Source of the DNA: Malacoraja senta | Taxonomy: Eukaryota | Length of the DNA: 64,000 bases | Reading direction: 5' to 3' | NCBI GenBank assembly: GCA_038087875.1 | Contig: CM075988.1 | Coordinates: forward strand, 24,864,001-24,928,000 | In this document: positions 32,776-38,155 of the stretch, piece after piece | Numbering within the stretch: position 1 is the stretch's first letter | How the letters are laid out: every line of letters starts with the position of its first letter | Notes under the pieces: model-generated | Database searches by the model: none | Seen by the model: the letters and a program-made list of their open reading frames with translations, nothing else | Told to the model about the DNA's origin: nothing | Made by a program: the position numbers and the translations under genes

Positions 32776-32869
32776 ATAGACACAAAATGCTGGAGTAACT
32801 CAGCGGGACAGGCAGCATCTCTGGAGAGAAGGAATGGGTGACGTTTCGGGTCGAGACCCTTCCTCAGAC
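32776..32869 (-). mobile_element. PLE subfamily A with intact hammerhead core
   Basis: Minus strand CUGAGGA A GGGU CUCG ACCC GAAA CGUC (32840-32867). Confidence 0.8.
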
Positions 32870-32970
32870 TTTAGATTAGAGATTTGTTCGTTTTGTTAGT
32901 TGTAGATACACTGGAACTGAAGTGGAGGGGCAGGAATGAGGAGCGGGCTTCTACGGAATAACCAAAAAGA

Positions 32971-33066
32971 AGGTAGACAAAAGTGCTGTAAAACTCAGCG
33001 GGTGCAGCAGCATCTATGGAGCAAAGGAAATAGGCAACGTTTCGGGCCGAAACCCTTCTTCAGACT
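32971..33066 (-). mobile_element. PLE subfamily B with intact hammerhead core
   Basis: Minus strand CUGAAGA A GGGU UUCG GCCC GAAA CGUU (33036-33063); TSD-like caaaaagaa. Confidence 0.8.
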
Positions 33067-33359
33067 GGTAAACAAAAAGAATATGTCCAACCTAAGTCGG
33101 CAATCATACCCGTACATTAAATCATGCTCTGAACATTTGCATGGACCCTTGAACTCAAGGAAGGAGATGTCATGGTGTTGTTAACCTGGGGGGCACTGTC
33201 GATCAGTGGTAGTGGAACTTGTCCCACTTTCAAATGAGCTGGAGTTTCCGGACATGTTTCTAATCACAGTGCAATGGGTAAACATGAAGCAGACAAAAAC
33301 CCGATGAAGGTGTTTACATTGAAGGTACACACACAAGAATTTGAATGTTGGCATGTGTG

Positions 33360-33396
<37 letters not shown>

Positions 33397-33985
33397 ATTC
33401 TGAACCACCTCATAAACTAGTAAATGATGGTGTGCCTTTAGCTGAAGCTGTTACTGCACTATCTTAGCAGGGAAGCTTTCTTTACTTAGGCTATTGTCAC
33501 CCAACAAAGGCTCTATGTTGTCTGCAACTGTGTGGGCTTTTTTAAATGCAAAGCAATAAATCTCTGTTGACAGACACTTGCTGCTTAGGGCTTTTTTGTC
33601 TGCCTTGATTTTAAAACCCTTCTCCTAGTCTGTAGATACCTTCCTAGCCTCACTGCCTCTCAGTCCTTTCAATCTATCTCTCGGTTTGTAAACTCAGTTC
33701 CTGGGATGCACCGCCAGGCCTCCTGTTTGCTGTGCTGTGGCAGATGTACTGTCAACAGAGTTACAAAATACTTGATCTTGAATCCCTAGCTCCTCCAGTG
33801 ACTTGCCACATTTAACCCAAGCTTTTTCCAACAGCCTCTATTTCTTTTATCTCCCCGATTCTAACTGCTGTTTCATTTCCTGTCCACCCATCTCTCCTCT
33901 ACTTTTAAATGTCCCAGTTCAGAAAAGCCCAGCAAAATGTTTTGACACTTAATAAGTGGATGTAATGATCATTAATTAGTGAAAG

Positions 33986-34108
33986 GTACACAAAAATGCT
34001 GGAGAAACTCAGCGGGTGCAGCAGCATCAATGGAGCGAAGGAGATAGGCAACGTTTCGGGCCGAAACCCTTCTTCAGACTCTTTTCGGGCCGAAACCCTT
34101 CTTCAGAC
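33986..34108 (-). mobile_element. PLE subfamily B with duplicated ribozyme core
   Basis: tttcgggccgaaacccttcttcagac twice; TSD aattagtgaaag at 33974-33985 and 34109-34120. Confidence 0.8.
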
Positions 34109-34265
34109 AATTAGTGAAAGATCATTTGATGCTGGAAACAGACATTTGGTCTTGTTGTTAGAATGAATTGTTCATGAAATCATCCTGGCCTTCACATAAT
34201 GGAGTATTCTCAGCACCAAGAGAACGTTTAGGAGAGATAATTTAAGAAAATGGACAATAAGTGTA

Positions 34266-34490
34266 TTTTAGTATAGAGATACAGCGTAGAAATAGGCCCT
34301 TCTTCCCACCGAGTCCATGCTGACCATTGATCACCCATACACTAGTTCTATCTTACACACTGGGGACAATTTACAGAAGTCAATTAACCTACAAACCTGC
34401 ATGTCTTTGGAATGTGGGAGGAAACGGAGCACCGGGAAAAAAACCACGCAGTCACAGGGAGAATGTACATACTCCGTACAGACAGGAACC
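34266..34490 (-). mobile_element. HE1/V-SINE
   Basis: Reverse complement of V domain and CR1-like tail. Confidence 0.8.
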
Positions 34491-35197
34491 GGAGTTATAG
34501 AAGGAGCAATTAGACAGGTGGAACAAGAACTTTGCAGGATGCTCAAATTGTATGCAGAGTCTTGGAGGAAGATGAAGAAGAGGTAATGAGGTGGAGGTGG
34601 AATTGCAAAGGGTGAGCTGCAGGTAACTGATGGGATAGATGTCAGTGGGTGTAGATACAAAGGAGGACAAGGTTTAGTTGCAATCCGTAATATGAGTTGA
34701 TCACAGCCCAGAAATAGGGACCTTAAATTCGGGAAGAGGAAACCTCACACCTATCCCTGTTCTCCAGCACTTTGTGTCGGTTGCTGTAAACCTGCATCTG
34801 CAGTTCCTTGCACCTTCTCCAAAACTCTTGATAGTTTTAAGTCTATTGTTCGCCACTATGCTTCATGGAGTGAATTCCAAATGGGAGCTTCATCGGGTAT
34901 CGGTACTGGCGGAACTGTTCTGGCATTTCTGGTGCTTTCTGGATCCTTGTATCCAAAATACAAGACCAATTTACTTTTCTTTATATATTATTCTTCTTTT
35001 CCTCAATGCCAGCGATTAAAAGGAACACAAAAGTACATTTCAAGGAATAATAAGACATTTCTCATTAAAGTTCTAGATGATTTTCTCACTGTTCTCGTTT
35101 TCTTTCAGTAGTACACAACAGATATTATGTCAACTAATTTAATTCTTTTTGCATCTCCAATTCCAGTCCTGCCATGAGAAAAACAATGGCAATTTGG

Positions 35198-35548
35198 CTG
35201 AGACAGAGTGGAGGTGGAGAGGATGTTTCCACTAGTGGGAGAGTCTAGGCCAGAGGGTACAGCCTCAAAATAAAAGGACGTACCTTTTGAATGGAGATGG
35301 GCGAATTTCTTTCGCCATAGGCTGGTGAATCTCTGAAATTCATTGCCACAGATCAGACAGATGGCAGTGGAGACCAAGTCATTGGGTATTTTTAAAGCAG
35401 AGATTGTCTTGATTAGAAAGGGCATCAAAGGTTATGGGGAGAGAATGCAGGAGAATGGGGTTGAGAAGGAAAAATAGATCAGCCATGATTGAATAGCAGC
35501 GCAGACCAAATCGGATGGTTGGCCTAATTCTGCTTCTGTGTCTTATGG
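35198..35548 (+). mobile_element. CR1 3' fragment
   Basis: ggatgtttccactagtgggagagtctagg...gatcagccatgattgaat. Confidence 0.75.
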
Positions 35549-35790
35549 TATAACTCTCCTGTGGGGGGATGCTGGATATAAGTAGACAGATAAACTGGTC
35601 ACTGTGGAACACAGCATCTGGTCCATGCACGGAACATCGTGATTGAATACATCCCTTTTCCCTCTCACCCTCATCTGACACATCTCCCAACGCAAGCCCT
35701 GTCCACTATCTATTAATCACCAGGGTGAGGTAAAAACATAAAAAACAATGAAAGGGGAAAATAGACCAGAAAATTTCTCTCACCTTCAGA

Positions 35791-36103
35791 TGGCATGGTG
35801 GCGCAGTGGTAGAGTTGCTGCTTTACAGCGCCAGAGACCCAGGTTCGATCCCGACTATGGGTGATGTCTGTATCTTTGGAGTTTGTACGTTCTCCCGGTG
35901 ACACTGTGGGTTTTCTCCGAGATCTTCGGTTTCCTTCCAAACTCCAAAGATGTACAGGTTTGTAGGTTAATTGGCTTGGTTTGAACGTAATAATTGTCCC
36001 CAGTGTGTGTAGGGTAGTGTTAGTGTGCGGGGATCGCTGGTTGGTGTGGACTCGGTGGGCCGAAGGGCCTGTTTCCATGCTGTATCTATAAACTAAACTA
36101 AAC
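35791..36103 (+). mobile_element. Full-length HE1/V-SINE (tRNA-derived)
   Basis: A box tggcgcagtgg, B box ggttcgatccc, V domain, CR1-like tail, (ctaaa)n end. Confidence 0.9.
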
Positions 36104-36353
36104 CTGATTGAAATGAGCACAGAATAGAAGGGATTGTTAGTTCATGTCCTGACCATCTTTTTCAGACTGGCGTTTGACAGTAAGTATGGACTTTGGCTCA
36201 ACCTCTGAAAGGACAGTAGGCATGGCGTCACGGGCTGGTATTAACCCTTTATGCTGGTTGATTCTCCAGGATTCCATTTGCAACCTATAATGATTGACAT
36301 GAATTGCATGAATAATGAATGCAGTGTTGGTAATCGGGCAGCACAAGCTGAAA

Positions 36354-36861
36354 ATACATAGAAACATAGAAAATAGGTGCAGGAGTAGGCCATTTGGCCC
36401 TTCTAGCCTGCACCGCCATTCAATATGATCATGGCTGATCATCCAACTCAGTATCCTGTACCTGCCTTCGCTCCATACCCCCTGATCCCTTTAGCCACAT
36501 GGGCCACATCTAACTCCCTCTTAAATATAGCCAATGAACTGGCCTCAACTACTTTCTGATGCAGAGAATTCCACAGATTCACCACTCTCTGTGTGAAAAA
36601 AAAAAATCCTCATCTCGGTCCTAAAAGACTTCCCCCTTATCCTTAAACTGTGACCCCTTGTTCTGAACTTCCCCAACATCGGGAACAATCTTCCTGCATC
36701 TAGCCTGTCCAACCTCTTAAGAATTTTGTAAGTTTCTATAAGATCCCCCCTCAATCTTCTAAATTCTAGCGAGTACAAGCCGAGTCTATCCAGTCTTTCT
36801 TCATATGAAAGTCACCCCATCCCAGGAATCTGTCTGGTGAACCTTCTCTGTACTCCCTCTG
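36354..36861 (-). mobile_element. CR1/HER1 LINE 3' end
   Basis: LYSLEFRRLRGDLIETYKIL..RTRGHSLRIRG. Confidence 0.9.
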
Positions 36862-36875
36862 TACTCGCTCATTTA

Positions 36876-37000
36876 AGATAGTCACAAAGTGCTGGAGTAA
36901 CTCAGCAGGTCAGCCTCGAAGAAGGGTCCCAATCCGAAACATCACCCATCCTGAGATGCTGCCTGACCCGCTGAGTTACTCCAGCACTTTGTGTCTATTT
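36876..37000. mobile_element. PLE inverted pair
   Basis: gctggagtaactcagc...gctgagttactccagc. Confidence 0.7.
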
Positions 37001-37719
37001 TCGGTTCCACAGTCAGCAACCGAGGACAGGATCAAACCTGGGTCCCTGGTGCTGTTAGGCAGCAGGTCTTCCAGCTCTGCCACTGTGCTGCCTTTGATAC
37101 GGGTGCACAAAGGGTTAAAGGGAACATGTTCCAGTTGCGGAGGAACCTGTAACCAAAATAATTAACGGAATTGGCAGGATAACCAGAAATGACAGGAGGA
37201 AGTGCATTTTTATGCATAAGGTGTGACTTGCAATGCCTCAAAACGTAATGGAAACAGATTCAATAACAGCATTGAGCAGACCCTTGTATCTACTGTGCTT
37301 TTGAAGGGGGGTAAATGCAGATCTGTGGGGAAAAGGAATTAAGTATATTACAGGACCAAATTATTCCTTTCTGTGGTATGTCATTCATGATCCAATGTAT
37401 ACTCTGTATCATGTACATAGTTTGTATACTGCTTGTGTAATCTGTAACTTGCCCTTTTAACACAGCCTATCTCTTTAGATTTCACTGACGAGCTATTTTC
37501 CATTCCCACAGATACGTGTTTTTCATTTATTTTTGTCCCTCTTGCACCTGGGCAGTGGGTAATGATTTCCAGGAAATCTGAATGCTGTCAGTGCACTGCC
37601 ATCCAGAAAGGATTAGCAATACCTTGTGACCTTTTAGACTTGAATAACAGCATTAGAAGGAAATTGTTCCCTGATAAATTTGCCAGATGATTTTCACCCA
37701 TAAACTGCTTCATCAAATT

Positions 37720-38155
37720 CATGTGTAGGAAAGAACTGCAGATGCTGGTTTAAATCAAAGGTAGACACTAAATGCTGGAGTAACTCAGCGGGACAGGCAG
37801 CGTCTCCTGAGAGAGAGAAGGTCTGAAGAAGGGTCTCGACCCGAAACGTCACCCATTCCTTCTCTCCAGAGATGCTGCCTGTCCCGCTGAGTTGCTCCAG
37901 CATTTTGTGTCTACCTTCATCAAATTAAGTCTGAAGAAAGGTCTCCACCCGAAGCGTCACCCATTCCTTCTCTCCAGAGATGCTGCCTGTCCCGCTGAGA
38001 TACTCCAGCATTCTGTGTCTACCTTCATCAAATTAAGTCTGAAGAAGGGTCTCCACCTGAAACGTTACCTATTCCTTCTCTCCAGAGATGCTGCCTTGCC
38101 CGTTGAGTTACTCCAGCGTTTTTAATTTATCTTCGCTGTAAACCAGTTCCTTCTT
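37720..38155. mobile_element. PLE inverted copy plus three tandem ribozyme-bearing units (~108-bp period)
   Basis: Cores at 37823, ~37931, ~38039; cttcatcaaatt at 37708, 37915, 38023. Confidence 0.85.

Follow-up and report, generated by a model that had tools for sequence, protein, structure and literature searches.

Minimal type I hammerhead ribozymes are already a known mark of the ends of Penelope-like elements (PLEs) across animals. This article describes a short dispersed repeat headed by such a motif in a 64,000-nucleotide (nt) stretch of the elasmobranch Malacoraja senta (GenBank assembly GCA_038087875.1, contig CM075988.1, positions 24,864,001 to 24,928,000, forward strand), referred to as the window and numbered from its first letter. 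The closest described systems are summarized first. PLE minimal hammerheads (Cervera and De la Pena, 2014, PMC4209133) combine CUGANGA and a bulged base with a G10.1-C11.1 pair, GAAA, a palindrome at 15.2-16.2 and an NUH cleavage triplet; they are mostly single and dispersed, sometimes occur as opposite-strand pairs, and often have GUU sites in that alignment. Neptune-clade PLEs (PMC8557442, PMC3846280) carry a C-terminal GIY-YIG endonuclease domain and a Cys-rich linker, and their insertions show 5' truncation, an inverted 5' partner, a 30-40-base-pair (bp) tail on one end and target-site duplications. In the anole Poseidon element PAc (Frangieh et al., 2024, PMC11167929), the hammerhead lies ~90-130 nt upstream of fixed 3' ends, the tail falls between two start sites for reverse transcription, both strands are extended and uncleaved RNA serves as the template. 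Non-LTR retrozymes (PMC7229834; bioRxiv 10.64898/2026.07.22.740005) are non-coding sequences with type I hammerheads that derive from PLE pseudo-long terminal repeats (pseudo-LTRs); they form tandem units of ~150-450 bp that are cut to monomers and expressed as small RNAs, both linear and circular.

The repeat in the window resembles all of these systems and, by every sequence feature tested, is a member of the known PLE minimal-hammerhead family. Its helix II of 4 bp and helix I of 2 bp lie at the short end of the published range, the latter as in Drosophila, Culex and Oikopleura (PMC4209133). The part of that alignment compared here holds no chondrichthyan, and two of the paper's supplementary files contain no shark, skate, milii or Leucoraja. 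Compared with endonuclease-bearing PLEs, the usual insertion is a ~95-nt cassette alone or two cassettes fused head to head, and duplications of 11-20 bp exceed the 8-10 bp of a rotifer PLE (PMC3846280). Unlike PAc, the cassette has no start codon in stem II (PMC11167929). Unlike non-LTR retrozymes, its copies are dispersed, are flanked by target-site duplications and span the cut site, with one short tandem.

The explanation preferred here, with a probability of roughly 0.55 for the reading as a whole, is that the repeats are pseudo-LTR end-pieces shed by autonomous Neptune-like PLEs, that the 5' end of the PLE RNA lies at a sharp boundary beside the hammerhead, and that the hammerhead is a passenger. 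The parts of this explanation that draw directly on the window are the PLE origin, the marks of target-primed insertion, the two 3' ends, the uncleaved template, the discrete 5' edge and the decay of copies. All counts below come from this single window.

Copy number and PLE origin

The 28-nt hammerhead pattern, which forms the head of the cassette, has 18 matches at three or fewer mismatches in the window, whereas 100 shuffles average 0.00. A hidden Markov model (HMM) trained on 12 window copies and covering the cassette in full gives 42 hits at 32 places and none in five shuffles. These hits cover 5.6% of the window, and 31 of them contain the span from stem II to the cut site, so that the ~25 copies of the original prediction, a note made from the sequence alone, were a fair estimate. 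The same note called the motif the commonest short repeat, which agrees with the top 13-mers and with a self-BLAST depth of 15-38 at most cassette loci versus at most 6 in other families. Its two subfamilies are also recovered, namely A (U-A pair, CUCG loop, GUC site) and B (U-G, UUCG, GUU), both young, with an older third group in addition. A scan of the window against Rfam returned no hammerhead family at E<=10 among 28 weak hits, presumably because the motif is too reduced for the Rfam models. DNA patterns of the cassette matched no locus in viral or metagenome contigs.

The four copies singled out earlier as intact lie where they were placed, on the strands given, with 0 mismatches to the pattern. 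Three are on the minus strand: the subfamily A core (GUC) at 32840-32867, within a short copy at 32774-32870 with an 11-bp target-site duplication; the subfamily B core (GUU) at 33036-33063, within a short copy at 32973-33067 with a 13-bp duplication; and the core at 34050-34077, in a short subfamily B copy that is preceded by a second partial core at 34083-34108, the pair (33986-34108) being enclosed by a 12-14-bp duplication. The fourth, at 37823-37850 on the plus strand, is the first core of a tandem described below.

The original prediction tied the motif to PLEs on the ground that it follows a GIY-YIG C-terminus at 49536-49780 and 58585-58930. Pfam has no direct match to the remnants at 49531-49593 and 58574-58760, and the 43-residue piece at 58632-58760 drew no match in a word-indexed protein search; both remnants were identified through relatives as the C-terminus of a PLE protein with a reverse transcriptase (RT) and a GIY-YIG domain. 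A phmmer search with the 43-residue remnant returned 39 relatives, and the eight looked up come from skates, a stingray and the whale shark. Among seven longer relatives scanned, GIY-YIG is present in six and RVT_1 in four; RT and C-terminal GIY-YIG occur together in P0040, P0043, P0044 and P0045, while the window holds C-terminal remnants only. Proteins of these relatives match the window at 58574-58760, 49531-49593, 48430-48501, 50463-50839 and 21935-22258, and the reversed window gives 0 matches. Four of these five endonuclease remnants adjoin a cassette on its 5' side, and the PLE link is therefore established.

The four adjoining loci are 5'-truncated or old elements. The plus-strand copy at 49531-49780 keeps the last 21 endonuclease codons, a pyrimidine-rich 3' region and an intact subfamily B core (49698-49725), and is flanked by a 13-bp duplication. 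At 58574-58922 (plus) a frameshifted endonuclease C-terminus (58574-58760) is followed by a decayed core at 58800 and a tail, and the minus-strand copy at 48134-48501 combines the endonuclease C-terminus with a long pyrimidine-rich region and a decayed core at 48227, within a 14-bp duplication with 2 mismatches. The fourth, at 50463-51232 (plus), is an old remnant with a decayed linker and GIY-YIG region and then a decayed cassette at 51160. The fifth remnant (21935-22258, plus) is an old linker/GIY-YIG piece beside a long (TG)n array, with no adjoining cassette detected by the HMM. A very old cassette at 5595-5990 (minus) follows an endonuclease-like C-terminus by eye, with no tblastn match at E 0.05.

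Neptune and Nematis PLEs are characterized by a Cys-rich linker (CX2-5CxxC) between RT and endonuclease (Craig et al., 2021, PMC8557442). The linker occurs as CxxxxCxxC in relatives P0040, P0041, P0043 and P0044 and in decayed form at window position 50493. The parent elements are provisionally called Neptune-like, from the linker in their elasmobranch relatives. By translation, the predicted protein of the shark relative P0042 appears to continue into a cassette-like peptide, and the skate protein model P0048 includes a 79%-identical translation of the cassette. Parts of this PLE, either the endonuclease tail or the cassette, are annotated as exons in the elasmobranch gene models P0003, P0021, P0046 and P0048, through either real exonization or annotation error.

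Insertion marks

Insertions of the cassette are marked by target-site duplications of 11-20 bp, by fixed 3' ends and by fold-back structures, all of which, judged from sequence, are known PLE insertion marks. The original prediction mentioned none of them, nor the optional tail, the tandem or the 5' boundary described below. A duplication score of at least 11 is reached at 9 of the 42 hits, one of which is the tandem, where the null fraction is 0.0135, and a duplication with such a score encloses five of seven fold-back units as well as the long copies at 49531 and 57423 (null ~0.03). Further examples around short copies are the subfamily B copies at 2939-3032 (plus; start 2 nt before the core, 15-17-bp duplication) and 10745-10843 (minus; start 3 nt before the core, 14-17-bp duplication, 10-nt inverted piece at the 5' junction), and the subfamily A copy at 49200-49288 (minus; start 2 nt before the core, 13-15-bp duplication). 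Short inverted pieces of target or element also lie at the 5' junctions 2935-2941, 10833-10843 and 32254-32270, which suggests fold-back synthesis during joining.

Positions within the cassette are numbered from C3 of CUGA as 0. The 3' ends fall into two classes, at +82 to +99 in 15 of 20 listed junctions and at +124 to +134, where the optional ~35-nt tail is present, in the other five. Overlap between target and template at the 3' junction averages 2.3 nt at 13 hand-picked junctions versus 0.73 nt in simulation, a difference that a target preference could also explain; in PAc, by comparison, the reported initiation site shares no homology with the cut DNA (PMC11167929).

The seven head-to-head fold-back units form predicted hairpins of -70 to -173 kcal/mol, and a tail arm is listed for five of them. 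The clearest is the near-perfect pairing of two subfamily B cassettes at 57735-57956 (93 pairs, -171 kcal/mol), which has a tail on one arm and a 20-bp outer duplication with 2 mismatches. Units with one tailed arm also occur at 59261-59447 (15-bp outer duplication), 54640-54856 (subfamily A, 17 bp) and 41690-41868 (15 bp with 2 mismatches), and an inverted partial cassette with a ~35-nt tail at 37722-37815 (minus) forms the left arm of a further unit with a 14-bp outer duplication. Two old units have no target-site duplication that could be found, namely the pair of partial cassettes at 36872-37005 and the unit at 1315-1521, in which an internal fragment ends at or one base past the GUC cut site and a copy that starts at -3 comes next.

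Only one of the 32 places is a tandem array, located at 37821-38122 (plus) and consisting of 2.8 units of 108 bp that each combine cassette and target sequence. Core 1 is intact, core 2 is broken, and core 3 is complete with a G-U pair and a GUU site; with its middle core broken, the array contains no two consecutive complete hammerheads.

A sharp 5' boundary

The one unexpected feature of the cassette is its 5' edge. With one tandem duplicate removed, 28 copies extend as far as C3; of these, 20 start at 0 to -7 and 8, classed as long by homology and partly by eye, extend more than 80 nt, with none of the 28 stopping between -8 and about -85. Starts at -2 or -3 account for 13 of 21 short entries. 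Per nucleotide, copies stop at a rate of 0.004 within the cassette, 0.137 at its edge and 0 further upstream, a pattern with a probability of 1e-14 if the rate were uniform. A pyrimidine-rich stretch (fraction 0.68-0.88) lies directly upstream in all eight long copies, ends in CAG in the young families and places the boundary within TCAGT. The subfamily A copy at 57423-57656 (plus) shows this arrangement, with ~145 nt of upstream pyrimidine-rich region leading to CTCAGT; it has lost G12 through CpG decay and has a 16-bp duplication with 2 mismatches. Two diverged ~300-bp copies at 2150-2460 and 3440-3750 (minus) include the upstream region of subfamily A, the 3440 copy ending ~9 nt short of the core.

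TCAGT matches the initiator consensus when the A at -3 is taken as +1. The promoter of Penelope lies within the pseudo-LTR and lacks a TATA box (PMC2377424), and a rotifer pseudo-LTR contains an initiator-like TCACT (PMC3846280). The boundary may thus mark the start of the PLE RNA. It is apparently new: a literature search, which did not extend to most subscription papers or to repeat databases, turned up no description of the elasmobranch cassette and none of 5' ends accumulating beside the hammerhead. Internal starts at the cut site number at most 1 in 15, and inserted copies therefore come from uncleaved RNA. A tree of 30 copies has long and short ones interspersed within each of the three groups, with 7 label changes compared with a shuffled mean of 6.5. 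An extra G before AGT, as from a copied cap, is present in four of seven copies with a -3 start, a number that is too small to weigh and in which one case is explained by an inverted piece.

Other sources of the boundary were considered and rejected. Cleavage at the upstream GUC or at the CUC/AUC triplet fails by inspection, since the GU is retained in the copies and helix III could not form. No RNA polymerase III B box matching the consensus is seen by eye, and a branch-point stop is disfavoured by the position of the branch-like A, just 9 nt away from the core.

The mechanism proposed from these observations would begin at a promoter within the upstream pseudo-LTR, where TCA(+1)GT would serve as the initiator of transcription. 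By analogy with the anole PLE work, the PLE protein would then nick DNA and begin reverse transcription inside its own uncleaved RNA at two sites, and priming from both strands would yield the fold-back units. Priming at the 5' cassette of the RNA would give a ~95-nt piece and priming at the 3' cassette a longer copy, so that most copies would stop 2-3 nt before the core because the RNA begins there. If the 5' edge is the transcript start, the short pieces would stem from the upstream cassette and could not be copied again alone. The hammerhead would be kept in the source elements and eroded in the copies by mutation, both neutral and at CpG sites, and cleavage of host RNA by it would be unlikely. 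The broader proposition, that SINE-like pieces (resembling short interspersed nuclear elements) are a built-in product of the autonomous PLE mechanism, accumulating here at one per 1.5 kb and mapping the promoter to the base, is held more tentatively, at a little short of even odds.

Several points weigh against this explanation, beginning with the restriction to one window and with the finding that its 64 kb contain no full-length PLE. Starts at -2 (6 copies) are nearly as common as starts at -3 (7), with four more at -4 to -7, and initiator-like hexamers in a loose form are common at 16.8 per kb. The boundary letters can be read equally well as a putative 3' splice site, composed of a pyrimidine tract and a CAG acceptor. 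The junction in the unit at 1315-1521 is compatible with a jump onto cleaved RNA, while a 3-nt microhomology explains it equally well. The copy tree is built from 105 columns and has 1 well-supported inner branch out of 27, which leaves room for a short-only master. Finally, the hammerhead core appears more conserved than the rest of the repeat in raw mismatches outside CpG (13/307 versus 219/2313 downstream, p=0.002), in a comparison that counts subfamily-diagnostic sites together with decay and is biased in favour of the core by the trimming of alignment edges. An excess of conservation in CUGAnGA and GAAA, for which the original prediction proposed to look, is thus present in raw rates and absent from private mutations (core 10/304 versus downstream 97/1972, p=0.25); sites with shared alleles likewise do not differ (core 1/10 versus downstream 17/57, p=0.27).

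The rival that survives best keeps the same by-product origin and takes the boundary as a truncation hot spot on a longer RNA, produced by drop-off of RT at the junction of the purine-rich core with the C/U-rich tract, by a splicing-factor block at CAG, or by preferred joining at that point. The pyrimidine-rich stretch and its CAG end speak for such a hot spot, in Drosophila Penelope the 5' end of helix I coincides with the end of the intron (PMC4209133), and heavy 5' truncation is typical of PLEs (PMC8557442). However, drop-off in low-complexity sequence should scatter the ends, which is at odds with the empty interval between -8 and about -85, and an acceptor block should leave ends 3' of the AG, whereas most copies include the G or the AG. 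A search for proteins with a cassette translation gave 4 matches and was uninformative on splicing at CAG. This possibility is considered unlikely, though it deserves to be taken seriously.

The retrozyme question

The original prediction went further and proposed a high-copy, non-autonomous, retrozyme-like derivative. Such a family, whether SINE-like or retrozyme-like, would consist of short masters with an internal promoter, mobilized in trans by the PLE protein. The very high density of hits, the uniform length of the copies and the existence of one 108-bp tandem speak in its favour, and PLE pseudo-LTRs are given as the origin of animal retrozymes, including those of one chondrichthyan, in a 2026 preprint (bioRxiv 10.64898/2026.07.22.740005). 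The copy tree, with the limited branch support given above, nevertheless contains no short-only clade, and the same boundary recurs in three subfamilies that also have long copies. Extrapolating from another clade, anole RNA needs ~55-60 nt past the start sites (PMC11167929), and these are absent from copies that end there. At 31 of the 32 places there is no tandem array, none has at least two consecutive complete hammerheads, and copies span the cut site rather than being bounded by self-cleavage. With label changes in the tree close to the shuffled mean, a separate retrozyme-like family is unsupported by the window and is regarded as improbable. The 108-bp tandem may represent an early step toward a PLE-derived retrozyme, by analogy with the published cases; in Xenopus, 1 of 9 dimers showed cleavage (bioRxiv 10.64898/2026.07.22.740005).

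Hammerhead structure and decay

The identification of the motif as a PLE-type minimal type I hammerhead is borne out by the consensus of both subfamilies, which contains CUGANGA, one unpaired base between 9 and 10.1, G10.1-C11.1, GAAA and an NUH triplet. Helix III is reduced to the palindrome ACGU (15.2-16.2), as had been proposed. Helix I was expected to pair ~2 bp and does so in 13 of 17 copies measured, with one of the other four mis-registered, which is the minimum of the published 2-6 bp range (alignment part of PMC4209133). Over 21 copies, 88% of structure cells pair, compared with 10-48% in slid controls, and the subfamily changes in helices I and II (U-A to U-G) retain pairing; covariation over the same copies shows no excess above shuffles.

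In the copies the motif is mostly decaying. The whole core is kept in 9 of the 31 copies that span stem II to the cut site, and core and stem II together are intact in 6. Decay is fast at CpG sites, affecting G12 in 7 of 34 cases and the CG of the palindrome in 12 of 66, and the pattern of conservation fits selection on source elements combined with neutral decay in copies. In the natural tandem, the active fold is predicted to lie 7.5-14 kcal/mol above the ensemble, a figure from secondary-structure energies only that a protein could change. With a 2-bp helix I and unfavourable predicted folding energies, self-cleavage of the monomer is doubtful, as had been suspected, and the copies are probably for the most part decaying passengers.

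The suggestion that the scattered copies are active ribozymes cleaving host transcripts, acting as dimers either within tandems in cis or in trans, draws on the fit of the core, bulged A, G10.1-C11.1 pair and palindrome to the published consensus and on the pairing retained across copies and subfamilies, yet it is very improbable given the few intact copies, the short helix I and costly fold, the pairing of the cassette with its antisense arm in fold-back units, the lack of covariation, the absence of a significant orientation bias (16 minus versus 9 plus by hand count among 25 single-strand places) and the weak cleavage or dependence on PLE protein of published minimal motifs (PMC4209133, PMC11167929). 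Cutting of host pre-mRNA, raised in the original prediction, is in particular unsupported, as the core decays like the rest of the cassette and no host gene was found in the window.

Other content of the window

A Pfam search of 388 window peptides found remnants of long interspersed nuclear element (LINE)-type RT and two weak stray hits, with no host gene, a result from which short exons could be missing. The RT remnants comprise RVT_1 and zf-RVT at 6698-8615 (minus) and a separate RVT_1 piece at 8401-9072 (plus). Four segments (9269-9823, 13761-14426, 59024-59241 and 61008-61213) are presumed to be the 3' end of a CR1/L2-group LINE; the segment at 59024-59241 matches 14195-14428 and 61008-61213. 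The window also contains a 1.7-kb degenerate (TG)n microsatellite of 878 units at 20169-21901 and a GC- and CpG-rich kilobase at 47001-48000 (GC 0.53, observed/expected CpG 1.04 versus 0.44 for the window) with no Pfam hit.

Implications for Penelope-like elements

The ribozyme itself is ordinary, and the value of the finding lies in the PLE mechanism, which is still poorly known. The fold-back units constitute a dense potential source of long double-stranded RNA. If the start-site explanation is true, the 5' end of the transcript would leave only AGU for helix I, and the 5' ribozyme therefore could not be further stabilized. The small overlap between target and template at 3' junctions would likewise add a priming step that has not been seen in vitro. 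Should the boundary prove to be where transcription starts, both ends of the reverse-transcription reaction would be recorded in thousands of genomic pieces, and the position of the promoter, priming from two strands and the role of the hammerhead would become testable from a genome assembly alone.

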